A stretch of DNA of 52,949 bases. Source: a phage. The translations under genes and the position numbers were made by a program. The DNA is taken from the sequence record PX651718.1, one strand, 5' to 3'. The number at the start of each line of letters is the position of its first letter. Positions within the stretch are counted from its first letter, which is position 1. Shown piece after piece: positions 1,847-52,908 of the stretch. The notes under the pieces were generated by a model, which saw only the letters and a list, made by a program, of their open reading frames with translations, searched no databases and was not told the DNA's origin.

Positions 1847-2497
1847 ATGATTACTGCAACACTCGTTGACCACATGGGCAGCGACCTTACAACTGTTAAT
1901 GCTGCACGAGTTTCTTATGGTGCAGAGTCGCATGAAATATCTTTACGTGACGAGAAGCTGATTGAGTTTCTTGCAAAGCATAAACACATTACGCCGTTTC
2001 GCCACGCACAGGTAACATTGCGTTGCAAAGCTCCAATCTTCATTGCACGTCAGCTTGGCAAACATCAAACTGGCTTTAGTTGGAATGAGGTTAGCCGTCG
2101 TTACAAAGATGGTGAAGCAATCTCTATTGAATGCTTTGTACCAGATGTTGTATTTGGTCGTCCTGAAAAGTTGATGACTCAGACTGCACAACCGTTGCCA
2201 CAAGATTTTGCTGACGATATTCATTATCGCATGGAAAGCCATAACAAGGCTTGCATCGCAGAGTATGAAACGTTAATTGGTTTGGGGATTGCCCCAGAGC
2301 AAGCTCGCATGGTTCTTCCACAATCCATGATGACTGAATGAATTTGGACTGGCTCACTTTATGGCTAGGCATCTATGTATAATCAACGTTCCTCCGAACA
2401 TGCGCAATACGAAGTTCGCTTGTTTGCGGAAGAAGTGAATAAAATCATGTCAGAACTATTCCCAATTTGTTGGAAGGCTCTGACCAACCAGGAATAA
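1847..2497 (+). pseudogene. thyX: flavin-dependent thymidylate synthase (ThyX)-like reading frame with two in-frame stops (TGA 2339-2341, TAG 2366-2368) and altered catalytic motif
   Basis: N-terminal 164 aa (track ORF 1847..2341) align with ThyX (AARVSY, PFRHAQ, KAPIFIARQ, SRRY); the same frame continues after the TGA as IWTGSLYG, then TAG, then ASMYNQRSSEHAQYEVR... to TAA at 2495-2497, matching the ThyX C-terminus with no frameshift; the RHR motif is replaced by KHQ. Confidence 0.7.
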
Positions 2498-2501
2498 ATA
2501 A

Positions 2502-4265
2502 ATGAACGTCAAGCAATGTGTGGCTAAGATTAAGCACGATGTACCAGACTGTAAATCCACATCTGGCAAGTCTTTACAGGTTTGGTTGAATGTCGATGAA
2601 GCTGGTAATAAGAACTTCTCTGGTTACTGCTTTGCGTGTGGCGTTCTGGTACCAAATCCTTATGGCAATAATCCGGAGAACATTCCAGAGATTAAAGTCA
2701 AAACTCCAGAAGAGATTCAGGAAGAAGTTGATGAAATCACTGCTTGTCCTCCGTTTGATTTAACCCATCGCAGCATTGAGCCGGAGTTCTGGAAGGCTGC
2801 TGGTGTTCGACTTCTGTATTCAGAGTATGATGGGAAGACTCCAAATGCTCTGGCGCATGGCTACACCAAAAATGGTAAACTTGTTCGTTGGAAGATTAAA
2901 CTTCTGAACAAGAAAGTTATGTGGTCGGTTGGTGACACTCAGGGTAACGACCCTTACAACTGGATGGCTGCAAAAGCAATTGGCGGTAAGACACTGTTCA
3001 TCACAGAAGGTGAAGAAGACTGCATCGCATTGCGTCAAATCCTCAAGACTATGAACCGTGGTGGTGCATACGAAGATTTGGATTTTGCTGTAATTAGTTT
3101 GAGTGACGGGAGTGATTCCGTACACAAATGTTTGTCACCAGTTGCAGAAGAAATTAAGCAACGTTGGGAGCAGGTTGTTATCGTATTTGATGATGATGAA
3201 CCTGGACGTAAAGCTGCAAAAGAAGCGTGCCGATTGTTGCCTGGTGCAATGATTGCAACACTTCCAGCTAACGATGCCAACGATTGTTTGAAGCGTGGCT
3301 TGCTAAAAGCTACTCAATCAGCTGTTGTATTCCGTGCTGCTCGTCCTCTTCCTACAGCACTTGTCAACAAAGAACTTCTTATGGAAGAGCTTGATGACGA
3401 GGTTGAACAGGGTGTGGATTATCCTTGGCCCAAGTTAACCGACTTAATGTTTGGTCAACGTCGAGCCGAAGTTATTACAATCGGTGGTGCAGAAGGTGGT
3501 GGTAAAACTACCTTGTCCCGTCAGATTGTGCATCACAACATCACCAAGCACGATTGGGGAGTGTTTACTGCATACATGGAGGAAACTCCTACAGAAACAC
3601 TGCGCCGAATGGCTGGCCTTAATGACAACTTGCCATATTGGGAGCCTGCGTTTACTCGTGAAGACCCTCGATATGATGAAGCTAAGTTCCGTCAAACTGC
3701 TGCGAAGATGCTTCGTAACATGGAGATTTGGGACCGCAAGCAAGCTGGAGAAGACCCTTATGAAACCTGGGATGGGTTAAAGACGATTCTTCGTCAGATT
3801 GGACCAGACATTGATATGTTTGTCCTTGATAACTTAACCTACTTATCGGAAGGGATTTCTGCCTCAGAGAAGAACGACTTCTTAGGTAAGCTGTATGCAG
3901 ATATTACTAAGCTGGCAGACCAATACCAGTTCCATGTGAATATTCTGTCGCACCTTAACCCTGTGGCAAAAGGCCAACGACCTCATGAAGATGGTGGACG
4001 TATTAAGAAGTCAGACTTTACTGGCTCCCGTGCTGCTGCCAAATATTCTCATGGTATGTTCGGCTTTGAGCGTAATAGCCAGGCAGTTGACCCAAACTGT
4101 TCTATTATTCGTTCCATCAAAGCTCGTAAGAGTGGTAAAACAGAAGGCTTCAAGACGTATTATGACACCGAATCTGGTCGAATTATTCAACGTTCTTGGG
4201 ATGACTCTCTGTTCGAAACTAAAGAGATTGTTCAACTTACTAAGAAGAACGGTCCACACCAATAA
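2502..4265 (+). CDS. bifunctional DNA primase/helicase (T7 gp4-like)
   Basis: N-terminal Cys-rich zinc-binding segment; TOPRIM motifs (ITEGEED, VIVFDDDEPG); DnaB-type Walker A (GGAEGGGKTT) and Walker B (MFVLDNL). Confidence 0.9.
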   Translation: MNVKQCVAKIKHDVPDCKSTSGKSLQVWLNVDEAGNKNFSGYCFACGVLVPNPYGNNPENIPEIKVKTPEEIQEEVDEITACPPFDLTHRSIEPEFWKAAGVRLLYSEYDGKTPNALAHGYTKNGKLVRWKIKLLNKKVMWSVGDTQGNDPYNWMAAKAIGGKTLFITEGEEDCIALRQILKTMNRGGAYEDLDFAVISLSDGSDSVHKCLSPVAEEIKQRWEQVVIVFDDDEPGRKAAKEACRLLPGAMIATLPANDANDCLKRGLLKATQSAVVFRAARPLPTALVNKELLMEELDDEVEQGVDYPWPKLTDLMFGQRRAEVITIGGAEGGGKTTLSRQIVHHNITKHDWGVFTAYMEETPTETLRRMAGLNDNLPYWEPAFTREDPRYDEAKFRQTAAKMLRNMEIWDRKQAGEDPYETWDGLKTILRQIGPDIDMFVLDNLTYLSEGISASEKNDFLGKLYADITKLADQYQFHVNILSHLNPVAKGQRPHEDGGRIKKSDFTGSRAAAKYSHGMFGFERNSQAVDPNCSIIRSIKARKSGKTEGFKTYYDTESGRIIQRSWDDSLFETKEIVQLTKKNGPHQ

Positions 4266-25923: not shown

Positions 25924-25952
25924 TGCCGGGATTAATCTCGGCATTCTTCTTT
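25924..25952 (+). terminator. putative rho-independent terminator
   Basis: TGCCGGG-ATTAAT-CTCGGCA stem-loop followed by TTCTTCTTT. Confidence 0.5.
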
Positions 25953-25993
25953 AACATTATTTGAATATGTATTAATTTCAATAGGTGTATAAC

Positions 25994-27091
25994 ATGCCGT
26001 GGATGCGTGGTATAGAGATAGTTGTCTCAAGAAAGGATGACCCAGAAACCAAGTCTGTGTTTAAAGCACACAAGATTGATTTCACCATCCGGTCAACTGT
26101 TGGTTGGCCAGCAGATACTGCCGATATTACTCTATACAACCTGGGCGTCGATGAAGTTAAATTCCTTCAAGACAAGTCCTATGGTGATATGTATATTGAA
26201 ATTCGTGCAGGATATTACGAAGACGAGCGTGTCGTTAATGCTGGTCATAATAAGTATCAAAGCCCAGGTCAGATGGATTCGGAAGTAAGGGTTGAGATTG
26301 GTCAAGTCCTTCCAACAATCTTCTCTGGCATCGTAACAAACGCAGTGGGATTCAGACGCCCTCCAGAACACATAACACAATTGTTTTGTATCTCCAAAGC
26401 CTATGGTGCATCTACTGAATTTACTCAGATGAGGGACATTCCAAATGGGGCAACCTTGGAAGATGCCATTCGTTCTATGTGTGCTGACTACGGCTTCTCA
26501 ACCATTTCATCTTTTGGTGTTGAAGAATCTGTATTCAAAACCAAGTTGAAGTTAGGTCGAGTATTCCATGACACATTCTTGGAAGAATTTCGTGCCTTGC
26601 TTGGGGAATACAATTTACTATTCTCAGTAACAACTGGTGAGATTCAAATCTTCCCAGACACCTACGGCAATAAAGATGCTGTAGACAGAATGTCAAAAGA
26701 CCGTGAGCCAATCAAGCTGGATGCCAATCAGGTTATTGGGAACCCTATTGCCGGAATTGCAACATACTCCTTGAATACATTTCTTAACGCCAGCTATCAG
26801 CCAGGAATGATTCTGGATGTATCTCCTCTGTTGGGAGAGCAATTGCTGGCTAATGGCGTTACTTCGGTAAATGGAAAAGGTGTTGTATTAAACACAGACC
26901 AAAGCGTGTTCCGTTGGGCGATGGAAGATAAATACTTCATCACAGAAGTTGTCCATCATGGCTCAACCCATGAAACTGTTTTCCAAACATCCATCACTGC
27001 AATGCTTGGTGGCAATACTGCAATGGGCGGTAAAGAAGCGGCTTGGCAGCAAGCCTACTTAAACAGTGGAATGGCTATGGAGTCTTTCTAA
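25994..27091 (+). CDS. tail protein (distal tail / baseplate region)
   Basis: ATG at 25994 with TAGGTG upstream; in frame with track ORF 25985..27091. Confidence 0.55.
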   Translation: MPWMRGIEIVVSRKDDPETKSVFKAHKIDFTIRSTVGWPADTADITLYNLGVDEVKFLQDKSYGDMYIEIRAGYYEDERVVNAGHNKYQSPGQMDSEVRVEIGQVLPTIFSGIVTNAVGFRRPPEHITQLFCISKAYGASTEFTQMRDIPNGATLEDAIRSMCADYGFSTISSFGVEESVFKTKLKLGRVFHDTFLEEFRALLGEYNLLFSVTTGEIQIFPDTYGNKDAVDRMSKDREPIKLDANQVIGNPIAGIATYSLNTFLNASYQPGMILDVSPLLGEQLLANGVTSVNGKGVVLNTDQSVFRWAMEDKYFITEVVHHGSTHETVFQTSITAMLGGNTAMGGKEAAWQQAYLNSGMAMESF

Positions 27092-37947: not shown

Positions 37948-38024
37948 CAAAATTTGTTCGAATGGAAGACCGACTATTAAATAATTTTTTTTTTATAATT
38001 TTTTTTTTAATTTAAATATTGCTA

Positions 38025-38041
38025 CAGAATTAATGAGACTA
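38025..38041 (+). promoter_or_regulatory. imperfect copy of the AATATTG palindrome (AATATTGCTACAGAATT) in an A/T-tract region
   Basis: Flanked by long poly-T/poly-A tracts (37975-38000, 38081-38100). Confidence 0.3.
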
Positions 38042-38268
38042 GAATTCGTAACAAAGCTACGAGACTCAAATTGCGGCAATATTATAATTTTTTATTTTTT
38101 GGGCCAGCGGGGAGGGGAAGCCCAACGTCCTATCGGACTTAAATACGGTCCCTACTCCAACTTTTTCCTACAGCCTATCGGCTTAATGATAACACCAAGT
38201 TAGGCGCTTCGCTTATGAGTCAAGGTCAAAGTCTTCGTGCTGTTGTAACAGTGGCACAGGTTTGTGAT

Positions 38269-38284
38269 ATTAGTTGGTTGTGAA
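38269..38284 (+). promoter_or_regulatory. conserved promoter-like motif, variant ATTAGTTGGTTGTGAA
   Basis: Member of the ATTAGTTGGATGTGAA family; 67 nt upstream of the RNA polymerase start. Confidence 0.4.
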
Positions 38285-38350
38285 TTGTGTAATGGCTACG
38301 CTATTATAATCCGTTTCAGTTAAATCATACACAATCTTGGAGACTTACAA

Positions 38351-40291
38351 ATGACTACTATCACCACTCAAACTATCAAATCCGTTGTTCCTGCTATCAC
38401 TGCTCTGGTATACCGTGCCAAAGAGAAGCAGAACTATATGCAGCCTCAGACTTGTGCTATTGCTGCCTTAGCCATATTCAAGATGATGACGTCTTTCACA
38501 CGTGATGACGTTGTTCCTGCCATTGCGATGGTTGAGCTGGCTTCTGCTTCTATTGCTGATGCCAACCGTTACAACAACGATTTGAAAGCAATGCACTATG
38601 TTGACCCAGCTATCAACCTCATTGGTCTGGCTAAGCACTTTGGCTTCATCACCATGAACGAAGACAAGTCATTCCAACAAACTGATACATGGGTTGAACT
38701 GGTTACAACCAAAGACACCGCAGTGCCATTCACCGAGCGTGTTACATCTGAATCTCGTCGCAAGCCTTTCGTTAAAGGTGGCAAAGTTAAGCCATCCAAA
38801 ACTCTGAAAGCTGCAATCGAATTCCTGCAAGATACTGAGTACCATGTGGAGACTGAGATGGTTCGCATCATTCAGTCCATGCTTGAGCAACGTACTTATG
38901 GTGGCTTGCAGATGCCAGAAGCAATCCAGACTGAACTCCATGTTTGGAACAATGCTGTAGCAATGATGAATCAAGACACTCTGTACTCTGACTACTTTGC
39001 TGATAACCGTGGTCGTTTGTATCACGTAGCATGTGCTGGTCCTAACCCACAATCCTCTGACTTTGCTCGTTGCTTGTATTCTCACAATGTTGAGAACATC
39101 GTTAAGAAGTTTAACGAAGATGGTTCTACTACCATTGCATACAACATGTTCATGGCAGAGCTGGAAGATATTTCCGGTGGTGAATGGTGCAGTGCTAAGC
39201 GTTTAACTTATGTTGCACAGAATCCTGCTGGTTCTTTGGCCCGTATGCTGAACATGCCTAAAGCTGAACGTCCTTCTAAGCCATTCACTTATGTTCGTCT
39301 GGCTCTGGATTGGTTCAAGTTTGAGACTACAGGTGAGTGTGATTCTCGTGTAGGCTTTGGCTTAGATGCTAAATGCTCTGGTACTCAATATCTGGCATTC
39401 ATTGCAGGTAACATGGAAATGGCTCGTGCAACAGGTCTGGTTGATTCTGAGACTAAAGCATCTGACCCATACCAGTTATCTCTTCGTGAACTGTTGAAAT
39501 TACTCGACCGTTCTTCAATGAAACCTTCTGTTGAAATCATGGAAGAGTTCTTGAACCCTAAAGCTGGTCGTAAGTTTATCAAAACTCCATACATGGCTAT
39601 TCAATACGGTGGTGGTAAAGCTGCTTTAACTGGTTCATCTGACTTTATCTCCTACATGACAGAAGCTCTCCAGATTCCTATGGAGAAAGTTGAGGCATTT
39701 GCTGAACTGTGTGTAGAAGCAATCCATAACGCATTGGGTGCTAAGATTAACATGTTCATTGAGAAAGCTGCTGATGCTGCATACAACCGTTGTGTTGAAC
39801 TTGGTAAAGAGTACATCACATATCGTCACACTGATGGTCAGGTTGTAATGAAGCCTTGCTTCCCATCTCGTGAAATCTGTGAGGCATTCAGCATTCGTGT
39901 TGATTCTCAAACTCGTGTTATCTTTGGCCAGATTCAGGAGAATAAGCCTTGGACCATTCGTGAATCCAATCCAACTAAAGAAGAATTCAAGCGTACTTTC
40001 GTTGTTAACTACATTCAAGGTATTGACGCACTTGTTGCTCGTACTGTTGCAGTTAAAGCTAAAGAAGCTGGTCTTCGTGGTTTTACTTCAATCCATGATT
40101 GTTTCCGTTGCTGTTTGGCAGATGCTCCACGTATGATGGAAGTTATTCGTGCAGCATATGTTGAAATCTTTGTAACCAACAATCAATTCGAGAATCTGTC
40201 TAAGCAACTCGGTGGCATTCAGATGTATCATGAGAACATCGTAACCGAAGAGCTTCTGATGAGCGAACACGCTTACTACTTCTGTCAATAA
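38351..40291 (+). CDS. single-subunit DNA-dependent RNA polymerase (T7-like, compact 646 aa)
   Basis: Motif A-like LDAKCSGTQY (compare T7 DGSCSGIQH); motif B RKFIKTPYMAIQYGG; motif C SIHDCF; RBS GGAG. Confidence 0.85.
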   Translation: MTTITTQTIKSVVPAITALVYRAKEKQNYMQPQTCAIAALAIFKMMTSFTRDDVVPAIAMVELASASIADANRYNNDLKAMHYVDPAINLIGLAKHFGFITMNEDKSFQQTDTWVELVTTKDTAVPFTERVTSESRRKPFVKGGKVKPSKTLKAAIEFLQDTEYHVETEMVRIIQSMLEQRTYGGLQMPEAIQTELHVWNNAVAMMNQDTLYSDYFADNRGRLYHVACAGPNPQSSDFARCLYSHNVENIVKKFNEDGSTTIAYNMFMAELEDISGGEWCSAKRLTYVAQNPAGSLARMLNMPKAERPSKPFTYVRLALDWFKFETTGECDSRVGFGLDAKCSGTQYLAFIAGNMEMARATGLVDSETKASDPYQLSLRELLKLLDRSSMKPSVEIMEEFLNPKAGRKFIKTPYMAIQYGGGKAALTGSSDFISYMTEALQIPMEKVEAFAELCVEAIHNALGAKINMFIEKAADAAYNRCVELGKEYITYRHTDGQVVMKPCFPSREICEAFSIRVDSQTRVIFGQIQENKPWTIRESNPTKEEFKRTFVVNYIQGIDALVARTVAVKAKEAGLRGFTSIHDCFRCCLADAPRMMEVIRAAYVEIFVTNNQFENLSKQLGGIQMYHENIVTEELLMSEHAYYFCQ

Positions 40292-48437: not shown

Positions 48438-48972
48438 CATTGCTCAAGCAGTAGAACAGCTAAAGTCCTGGCGTAGAGATGAAACCTTATTGGTTCGTTT
48501 CTACACAGGCGAAACTAATTCTGAATTTGTAGATGCGTGGATTGATGGCCTGTCTTGGCGTCATTATGACTTCAACATGCGAGACTATTTGCATGAAGAA
48601 TACGGCATTGAATATCCAGAAGACGGTACATATGACGTAATTGAGTCAAATGAAGAAGATGTTACCGAAGTTTGCTTTGTTGACGGGCTGTTCAGCATTC
48701 GTAAATACGACAAGTTCAACGAACTGCTTGTTGATACTGATTTGGATGTAATTCTTGCAGCATTCCGTAGTGGTGATATTGATATTTTCACTGTGGATGA
48801 TTTGAACGACATGTTCATCACACGTTGCGACTCAATTACAGAATATTTGAAGCAAAGTGAGGCACTGGATATTCCAGACCGCCTTGCACCATATATTGAT
48901 TGGGATGCAATCACCAGAGATTATGGAAGTGACTACATTTTCTCTGAGGGAATATTATTCTTAAATGCGTGA
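48424..48972 (+). CDS. hypothetical acidic protein
   Basis: Track ORF. Confidence 0.5.
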   Translation: MQNDSIAQAVEQLKSWRRDETLLVRFYTGETNSEFVDAWIDGLSWRHYDFNMRDYLHEEYGIEYPEDGTYDVIESNEEDVTEVCFVDGLFSIRKYDKFNELLVDTDLDVILAAFRSGDIDIFTVDDLNDMFITRCDSITEYLKQSEALDIPDRLAPYIDWDAITRDYGSDYIFSEGILFLNA

Positions 48973-49276
48973 TTTAAATATTGCTGAACTTGAGGCTGGA
49001 TTGATTGTTCACCACCAGCCTCGAAACACTTTCTATCGTATTCTTGGGCCTACAAAGATTAAAACTCACTGCGGAAGTTGGGTGGATGGGTTTGCTTACC
49101 AAGAAGTGAAGAAGTACGGGGGACCATACTTTCTTAAGTATTGATTCTTCTACCATCTACACACGACCGAAAGAGCTATTTGACTCAGACTGGAAAACAC
49201 TATAGTTCCAGGCGGGTTTCTTCGAAGTGCCAAGCGGGTTTTGTGCTCGCATTGGCCTTCGGCTTTAGTCTGAAAC

Positions 49277-51587: not shown

Positions 51588-51663
51588 AAGAGAAAGGCTC
51601 TTTAATTTTATCTAAGTCACGTCACCGTGGCGTGCAAAACTATTCAATATAAGGTATATACAA

Positions 51664-52002
51664 ATGGCTAAGATTGTAACCGTAACTCAGTACGAAGCTA
51701 ACGATGGTTCCCTGTTCCTGACCGAAGCAGAGTGTAATGCACATGACTTCAAACTGGAAAACGGTGCTAAAATTGAGAAAGCTGCCGAAGCGTACCTGAA
51801 CACCGTTGGCGCTATCGACCGTTCTCGCTCCATGCAGAAGAACACCATCGAGCAGTTCCTGGCATTCTACCTGCCGTGGGTTGAAGCTGGTGAGCCGGAA
51901 GTTGAGCGTACTAAGTTCGATACTCCGAAAGAAGCTAAAGTTGCTGACGCAGTTGTCGCAGAAGCTGCCGAAGCTGCTGTAGAAGAAGCTCCGGTATTCT
52001 AA
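51664..52002 (+). CDS. hypothetical protein with acidic Ala/Glu-rich C-terminus ending in F
   Basis: Track ORF with AAGGTATA RBS; codon usage resembles highly expressed E. coli genes; ends AEAAVEEAPVF. Confidence 0.55.
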   Translation: MAKIVTVTQYEANDGSLFLTEAECNAHDFKLENGAKIEKAAEAYLNTVGAIDRSRSMQKNTIEQFLAFYLPWVEAGEPEVERTKFDTPKEAKVADAVVAEAAEAAVEEAPVF

Positions 52003-52908
52003 GTTGCCGATGGCAAACTTGAGAGACTAAGCTAAATCGATCTGGCATGCACTGGAAGTTTTCCGGTGCTGCCTTGAACCCACTCTGAAAGGAAGAGTGG
52101 GCTTCAATGAGCATTCTTGTGATTAGAGTTGGGAGGAAGGCCGATGCCCAAGCTCATGGCCCAGACGAGAGTGTTCATTGAAGTAGTTTTCTGAGTCTTA
52201 CGACGGGCCTAAACTGCCTGGAGTTATTGCGACTGTTTTATTCATTTAAAATAAATGCAAATGATTCTGAAATGCGAGTTGCGGCTTAATTAAATTTAAG
52301 TCCTCTCCGTGGTCTTCCAATCCCACGTAACCAAATTTGGCGCATTGTGGCTTCGAGATGTGATTAATAAATCGGAGCAATAATTAATTTGTATTCTGCG
52401 ATGCAATGCAGGCTTAAGTCCCTCAGTGCGCGTGGGGATGTGACAGAGTACAAACTTAATTATGCAGTTGGATATTTCTAGAGGACGGACGAGCACACTG
52501 GAATGTCTTCAATTGGTTTAGTGTGAGAAGCTATGCCAATATGAAACGTAACTCCTTGGGGAAGTGCTCCTCTGGATTTCCCTCCACACAGGAATCTCAA
52601 GCCTGTGGCAGCGACTTCGAAGCTGCACTGCGTAACCTAAATTCACCCTAAAGTGAGTTGCCCTGAGTATGGAAATAAACTGCTCATAACCGATGGTATC
52701 TACAAAGGTAGATTAAATCAGGTTGCCTGTTGGTACTTGGGGGTTCAACACCTGCTTGCACTCGCAAAGTAGTGCCTTGTACCTGAGATGAAGTGAGTCG
52801 GGACCATCAATCCCACGTTATGTCAAAACACAGTAGGCGGCTCACAGATTCTACAAGCCTCGCAGTTCGGGGAAAACCTGCGTTATCAAAACCCCCCCCT
52901 CATTATTT

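Follow-up and report, generated by a model that had tools for sequence, protein, structure and literature searches.

Two in-frame nonsense codons private to the thyX gene of a Carltongylesvirus phage: a probable recent loss-of-function allele

The DNA analyzed here (PX651718.1), referred to below as the window, is a stretch of 52,949 nucleotides from a phage, read on one strand. It represents a complete ~53 kb Carltongylesvirus (Chaseviridae, Cleopatravirinae) of the ST32/phiEcoM-GJ1 group of E. coli myophages and is of the ST32/PO103-1 type, its nearest relative overall being PO103-1, with 97.1% identity over 51 kb. On the plus strand, at 1847..2497, it carries a thyX reading frame of 216 codons plus TAA that is interrupted by two in-frame stops. 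The frame opens with an ATG at 1847, runs through 164 sense codons to a TGA (opal) at codon 165 (2339..2341, plus strand, next base A), continues for eight sense codons (IWTGSLYG) to a TAG (amber) at codon 174 (2366..2368, plus strand, next base G), and then extends over 42 sense codons (ASMYNQRSSEHAQYEVR...) to the TAA at 2495-2497, all in one frame and with zero indels. An earlier inspection of the letters alone, hereafter the sequence-only reading, had described this same layout, and its coordinates are confirmed. Under standard decoding, the 5′ fragment (1847..2341, plus strand) encodes 164 amino acids and ends at the TGA, and the 3′ remainder of the frame (2369..2497, plus strand) is left untranslated. 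A 40-aa ORF can be called mechanically from an ATG at 2375 within this remainder, with only a weak AGG in front of it. An antisense ORF at 2124-2372 and other overlapping frames are also merely mechanical, every conserved gene being on the plus strand.

The thyX frame lies in a neighborhood of nucleotide-metabolism and replication genes, encoding dUTPase, dNMP kinase, RNR beta, primase, and DNA polymerase. Directly downstream lies a primase/helicase gene whose protein product is the same in ST32, SKA49, and flopper; an AGGA Shine-Dalgarno motif (2490-2493) precedes its ATG at 2502 (2490..2504, plus strand).

When the two stops are masked, the conceptual 216-aa product aligns with the Pfam Thy1 profile (PF02511) from end to end, amino acids 5-206 covering profile positions 1-190 of 191 with 139.5 bits (E=1.5e-40), far above the curated cut-off of 24.8 bits; this is the profile alignment that the sequence-only reading had proposed as a check. 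The same product matches the solved ThyX structures from Thermus and Thermotoga (E=3e-29 and 1.4e-28), and with tryptophan placed at both stops it shows 100% protein identity to the ThyX proteins of ST32 and PO103-1. Taken together, this identity and the domain and structure matches leave no room for chance in the homology beyond both stops. The conceptual product shares with the T. maritima (TM0449, PDB 1kq4) and T. thermophilus (6j61) enzymes not only the full-length domain match but also the catalytic residues, as it keeps Q69, S83, R85, Y86, R154, R181, H185, Q187, and E189. In the alignment with T. maritima ThyX, S83, R85, and Y86 correspond to S88, R90, and Y91, R154 to R147, and R181 to R174, so that all three substrate-binding arginines (R90, R147, and R174 in T. 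maritima) have a counterpart.

In contrast to canonical ThyX, only 164 of the 216 residues can be made from the interrupted frame. The 164-aa fragment alone still scores 100.5 bits against Thy1 (profile positions 1-148) and retains K72-H73-Q74, S83, R85, Y86, and R154. It lacks H185, Q187, and E189 as well as R181, which is encoded 3′ of both stops within the conserved NQRSSEHAQYE segment. Arg199 of the M. tuberculosis ThyX and Arg174 of the H. pylori enzyme, which match R181, are among the residues that hold dUMP (PMC6514825). Given the loss of R181 and of the segment bearing H185, Q187, and E189, the fragment should be inactive.

The sequence-only reading had also pointed out that the RHR motif, which it labeled as dUMP-binding, is replaced by KHQ, and had suggested that the product may not be a canonical thymidylate synthase. 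The replacement itself is real. In the ThyX motif RHRxxSxxxxSxRY, the S-x-R-Y half is present (S83, R85, and Y86), and K72-H73-Q74 (AAA CAT CAA, 2060..2068, plus strand) aligns with R78-H79-R80, the FAD-binding motif of T. maritima ThyX, with one extra residue before the S-x-R-Y half. The label needs correction, as RHR mainly binds the phosphates and ribityl of FAD and only its first arginine also contacts the flavin and dUMP (PMC6514825), and the other catalytic residues are all found in the conceptual product. The suggestion drawn from the motif is weak, because KHQ is conserved across a whole subfamily. It was found in 118 of 120 close cluster representatives, and all 80 ThyX loci from IMG/VR carry KHQ or a close variant (67 KHQ, 11 KHK, 1 KHT, and 1 KHM). 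KH(Q/K/T) is also more frequent than any other state in the 150 nearest representatives at 50% identity, about 65 of which have KHQ itself. As judged from these alignments (proteins P0136-P0285 and loci L028-L107 for the KH(Q/K/T) subfamily set), KHQ is a conserved subfamily trait under selection rather than a sign of degeneration or a peculiarity of this genome. Together with the one-residue insertion, it distinguishes the phage subfamily from the T. maritima and T. thermophilus enzymes and marks a large, conserved, mostly viral group of ThyX proteins whose cofactor binding may be slightly different. It does not cast doubt on the intact protein of the relatives as a predicted thymidylate synthase, and it is irrelevant to the two stops. 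The combination of KH(Q/K/T) and the insertion in a very large viral subfamily is of somewhat wider interest for the enzymology of flavin-dependent thymidylate synthases. Several members of the subfamily, of 350-600 aa (P0136, P0205, P0241, P0258, and P0265), contain an apparent intein whose ...VVHN end abuts the conserved S/C of the SWNE segment.

Both stops arose from tryptophan codons by single G>A transitions, G2341A turning TGG into TGA at Trp165 and G2367A turning TGG into TAG at Trp174. In the DNA alignment with the thyX genes of ST32 (ASD54011.1), PO103-1 (UTQ80247.1), SKA49, and flopper, which have the same length, position, and neighbors and are 99% identical over 651 ungapped columns, all four have TGG at both codons where this phage has TGA and TAG. 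The same was true of every related DNA sequence examined, 19 of 19, with nucleotide identities down to 77%: TGG at both sites and no internal stop. In ten further contigs whose primase/helicase protein is identical to that of this phage, an intact 216-aa Thy1 gene lies directly upstream (10/10). At the protein level, W165 is present in 120/120 and W174 in 119/120 (F in the remaining one) of the best 120 protein-cluster representatives, which are 66-97% identical. The comparison with related phages that the sequence-only reading had called for therefore gives a clear result, in that neither stop is conserved and all relatives have TGG.

No second public copy of either stop was found in IMG/VR, JGI metagenomes, GTDB, or E. 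coli genomes. A 38-nt stretch across both stops, with R in place of each changed base, was matched only by sequences with G at both, namely one metagenome contig and, in IMG/VR, ST32 and flopper; GTDB genomes gave no match, nor did complete E. coli genomes for the whole thyX gene. The 164-aa and 40-aa products and eight other proteins specific to this phage had no exact match in a collection of 15 billion proteins, and a literature search found no paper describing such a strain or allele. None of the 80 ThyX loci from IMG/VR, which were compared as DNA so that gene calling could not mask pseudogenes, has the two stops. Two of these 80 loci contain one in-frame stop in a gene that is otherwise full-length (TAA at codon 29 in L036 and TGA at codon 42 in L055). 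Isolated stops in this family are thus a rare but recurrent finding in public assemblies, be they errors or real variants.

The frame is perfectly kept across both stops and the conserved C-terminus is intact, as would be expected if a programmed recoding (readthrough, selenocysteine insertion at UGA, a suppressor tRNA, or an altered code) made both stops be read as sense and gave full-length ThyX at a regulated level. The readthrough of the Q-beta A1 protein and the TAG- or TGA-recoded genes of gut phages share with this locus an in-frame stop followed by homologous coding sequence. However, programmed readthrough implies conserved stops, and here they are missing from every relative, all of which have TGG. 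Moreover, both stops serve as normal terminators in this genome, where TGA and TAG end 26 and 7 of the 83 other plus-strand ORFs (33/83), so no genome-wide stop avoidance is seen. ARAGORN found no tRNA gene in the genome, and an Rfam search of it gave zero matches. Stop-codon reassignment and a phage suppressor tRNA are rejected on account of this lack of tRNA genes and of the ordinary use of both terminators. A SECIS element or a readthrough-stimulating RNA structure is also rejected, as nothing stable or SECIS-like was found 3′ of the UGA and shuffled sequence folds at least as stably as 2339-2390 and 2320-2420 (z = 0.0 and +1.3). In a sup0 host, two readthrough events in series would also be expected, from known readthrough frequencies, to give a negligible yield. 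With no recoding device and no conservation of the stops, reassignment, a phage suppressor tRNA, selenocysteine insertion, and stimulated readthrough are all unsupported, and we regard recoding as extremely improbable. Of the three alternatives offered by the sequence-only reading, readthrough thus falls, whereas a recent double nonsense inactivation and a sequencing error are both favored by the uninterrupted 216-codon gene of every relative examined.

The thyX gene is under strong constraint in the clade. In pairwise comparisons of ST32 with its relatives, at dS up to 1.0, the dN/dS ratio of thyX is 0.07-0.18, which indicates from the sequences that the gene is likely functional and maintained. 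Compared with ST32, the thyX of this phage has four synonymous, no nonsynonymous, and two nonsense changes, and no indels. The absence of missense changes and the otherwise identical protein in ST32 and PO103-1 point to a very recent event, and no relaxation of constraint beyond the stops, in the form of missense changes or frameshifts, is visible. Hence the lesion either arose very recently or is an artefact. The remark of the sequence-only reading that a decaying pseudogene should usually show frameshifts as well was fair, but here it speaks for the very young age of the lesion. The locus has the marks of a young pseudogene: the stops stand at sense codons of the orthologs, they occur in one lineage, and the gene is constrained elsewhere. 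In all relatives, the whole domain is encoded by an uninterrupted ORF, and thyX is the sole gene of this phage that is truncated relative to all five complete relatives.

Set against these five complete relatives, the window has 211 private differences, comprising 204 substitutions and 7 single-base insertions. Of the substitutions, 155 are synonymous, 38 nonsynonymous, 9 intergenic, and 2 nonsense, the latter two being the thyX stops. Since random errors are expected to be ~70% nonsynonymous, the ratio of 155 to 38 is what real divergence under purifying selection produces, and not random base-calling error, and the base calls must overwhelmingly reflect evolutionary differences. The spectrum of the private changes is ordinary (T>C 59, A>G 48, C>T 36, and G>A 30), with no excess of G>A or C>T. 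A genome-wide G>A hypermutation by a deaminase, hydroxylamine, or DNA damage is rejected for this reason, and the nonsynonymous fraction is not raised for G:C>A:T changes either. Templated mutation from a quasi-palindrome or an ectopic repeat was also discarded, as no repeat partner accounts for either change; an 8-nt inverted repeat links 2237-2244 and 2359-2366, but the mutation does not extend it.

Two stops in one gene are not easily obtained by chance. Only 3.4% of the possible transitions in the ancestral thyX create a stop, or 6.7% of the G>A transitions, all of them in five TGG codons, and the probability of two nonsense changes among 3-6 neutral transitions is about 0.003-0.016. The proximity of the stops alone is unremarkable, as private substitutions are clustered throughout the genome (56 pairs within 30 nt where 22 are expected), in line with mosaic recombination with unsampled relatives. 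In addition, the 30-nt stretch 2339-2368 is unusually rich in tryptophan, its three TGG codons containing 6 of its 10 G's, so that a single local event with two G>A changes would often make two stops there.

The main rival to a recent loss of thyX is a localized sequencing, assembly, or consensus artefact, in which TGG is the true codon at both sites and two G's were miscalled as A. We consider it unlikely, yet clearly ahead of the other alternatives. Such an artefact could come from low coverage of this stretch, from a consensus built on damaged reads or on a minority variant, or from cytosine deamination on the complementary strand. The otherwise pristine gene, with no missense change, would be explained at once, as would the shared G>A direction of two changes that are only 26 nt apart and the absence of these stops from any other sequence. 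The window also has at least one other suspicious lesion, a +1 G frameshift in a conserved 79-aa gene (48965-49205), and a few private 1-2 nt indels in homopolymers, and single in-frame stops are present in 2/80 of the ThyX loci in IMG/VR assemblies. However, random error as a general property of this sequence is excluded by the private changes, 155 synonymous against 38 nonsynonymous, and neither G>A nor C>T is in excess genome-wide. Neither site is in a homopolymer, and the two share no Dam or Dcm motif; a basecalling error at methylation motifs can be dismissed, as neither stop site is within GATC or CCWGG. Finally, errors are no likelier than mutations to strike two Trp codons.

The stops could also have been made or selected in the laboratory, the phage being an amber and opal double mutant obtained by mutagenesis or engineering and grown on a suppressor or permissive host. 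Amber and opal mutants classically arise by G:C>A:T transitions at TGG, to TAG or TGA, and two close stops in an otherwise perfect gene do look designed or selected. However, heavy chemical mutagenesis would leave a genome-wide excess of G:C>A:T changes, and none is seen; restriction-site or scar signatures around the changes and a templating repeat are absent as well; and elsewhere the genome, which is ~3% divergent from its nearest relative, shows a natural pattern in which synonymous changes predominate. In a thyA+ E. coli, thyX is unlikely to be essential and would be an odd target for a conditional-lethal mutation, and the literature search brought up no paper on such a strain. We judge a laboratory allele improbable. 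A further reading supposes that ThyX is costly, or is sensed, for instance by an abortive-infection or other defense system, in the isolation host, so that selection for the amber would have sealed a first, leaky opal. Neutral mutation is unlikely to give two nonsense hits, and readthrough of UGA by tRNA-Trp would reinsert the native residue. Against this, the literature search revealed no known defense system triggered by ThyX, and strong conservation of thyX extends to every relative, among them phages of many E. coli hosts. An adaptive loss of this kind is very improbable in our view, and the fuller scenario of an amber reinforcing a leaky opal a little more so. Under that scenario, Chaseviridae would have in thyX a core gene that is conditionally counter-selected. 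Both the laboratory allele and the adaptive loss are thus conceivable but unsupported.

We therefore favor a very recent, lineage-specific loss-of-function allele of thyX in a phage that relies on the host ThyA, to which we assign a probability of roughly 0.6. Two G>A transitions that would be real in the phage stock may have struck the Trp-rich stretch, at Trp165 (TGG>TGA) and Trp174 (TGG>TAG). Translation would stop at the UGA at 2339 and yield the 164-aa fragment without the C-terminal 52 residues; lacking R181 (R174 in T. maritima) and the HAQxE segment, this fragment is expected to be an inactive enzyme. Low-level readthrough of UGA by the E. coli tRNA-Trp would restore the wild-type residue at codon 165, and would then be halted at the UAG nine codons on. 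The dTMP of the phage would come from the host ThyA and from salvage, and the dUTPase, dNMP kinase, and RNR beta genes are retained. Because the primase gene has its own ribosome-binding site (AGGA-N8-ATG) and would start independently, the thyX stops are not expected to be polar. By analogy with other phage thymidylate synthases that are not essential, the loss would probably be tolerated on a thyA+ E. coli.

Several observations run against a recent loss. Two nonsense changes among only 3-6 differences are unlikely if they were independent and neutral (the probability given above), missense changes are usual in a pseudogene and there are none here, and, since thyX is conserved and constrained family-wide, its loss should cost something. 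In addition, no second public sequence has either stop. As with classical amber and opal alleles and young unitary pseudogenes of phages, each stop comes from a single G:C>A:T change in TGG, the gene is otherwise unchanged, and one lineage is affected. Unlike the classical alleles, the locus combines two stop types nine codons apart in a gene that is probably non-essential, with no sign of a suppressor host or of mutagenesis. The feature is of an ordinary kind, confined to a single genome and attributable to a consensus error at this locus or to a young nonsense pseudogene, with no new mechanism involved.

The value of this case lies in annotation and quality control, as thyX should be annotated here as a pseudogene or flagged, and neither as a readthrough gene nor as two small ORFs. 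Provided that the stops are real, a phage on a thyA+ host can survive the loss of thyX, a core gene on which purifying selection acts throughout Carltongylesvirus. The gene would then mark a dispensable locus, a small but practical point for phage engineering.

In three relatives, a gene of ~150 aa for an HNH homing endonuclease lies directly upstream of thyX and overlaps its displaced start. It adjoins thyX at 25942-26244 on the minus strand in BSBP01 (L012), at 645-1097 in SA91KD (L108), and at 640-1092 in Pel53 (L109). The sole changes specific to the alleles with this gene are in the first 24 nt of thyX (1847-1870 in the window, including H9S), which, from the sequence comparison, are likely to be its target or immunity site. 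Escape from this endonuclease was considered as an origin of the two stops and rejected, as alleles with and without the gene are identical over 2320-2390 and differ consistently only in thyX nt 1-24. The Pel53 record (PP952070.1) is entitled 'Staphylococcus phage Pel53' and carries an S. hyicus label; its sequence is Carltongylesvirus-like and about 87% identical to E. coli phages over the thyX-primase region, so this host assignment looks doubtful.

The second disrupted gene of the window, at 48965-49205, encodes a conserved 79-aa hypothetical protein and is frameshifted by the extra G, which extends GGGG to GGGGG (run 49118-49122). It is a homolog of ST32 gp27, located just downstream of the antirestriction gene, and is intact in ST32, PO103-1, and Ecp_YSF. 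An indel in a homopolymer is a typical sequencing error but could also be real. The private substitutions are strongly clustered, with 20 in kb 39-40 (38000-40000 being the region of the RNA polymerase gene) and 8 in the first 240 nt; private short indels are found near the genome end, at 52086, 52639, 52739, and 52869. These clusters and end indels could stem from mosaic recombination with unsampled relatives, or else the sequence may be less reliable near the assembly ends.

Regarding tRNA genes in the group, ARAGORN detected a tRNA-Leu(CAG) of 95 nt in ST32 only (L013, 15909-16003), and none in this phage, PO103-1, 2KOFFS, Ecp_YSF, or BSBP01; a tRNA-Arg annotated in Ecp_YSF (51606-51676 of the record) is not reproduced by ARAGORN. 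Upstream of thyX, about 930 nt at ~620-1560, between small Rz-like genes and a gp37-like gene, contain no plausible ORF. A structured RNA was considered for this stretch and rejected, as it contains neither a tRNA nor an Rfam match (even at E<=1) and its fold z-score is -0.76. Its GC content is slightly raised, at 0.49-0.52 over 800-1300. The corresponding region is unannotated in most relatives and 85-97% identical, with modular indels around 959-1029 and 1133-1203, and in 2KOFFS it harbors an HNH gene.
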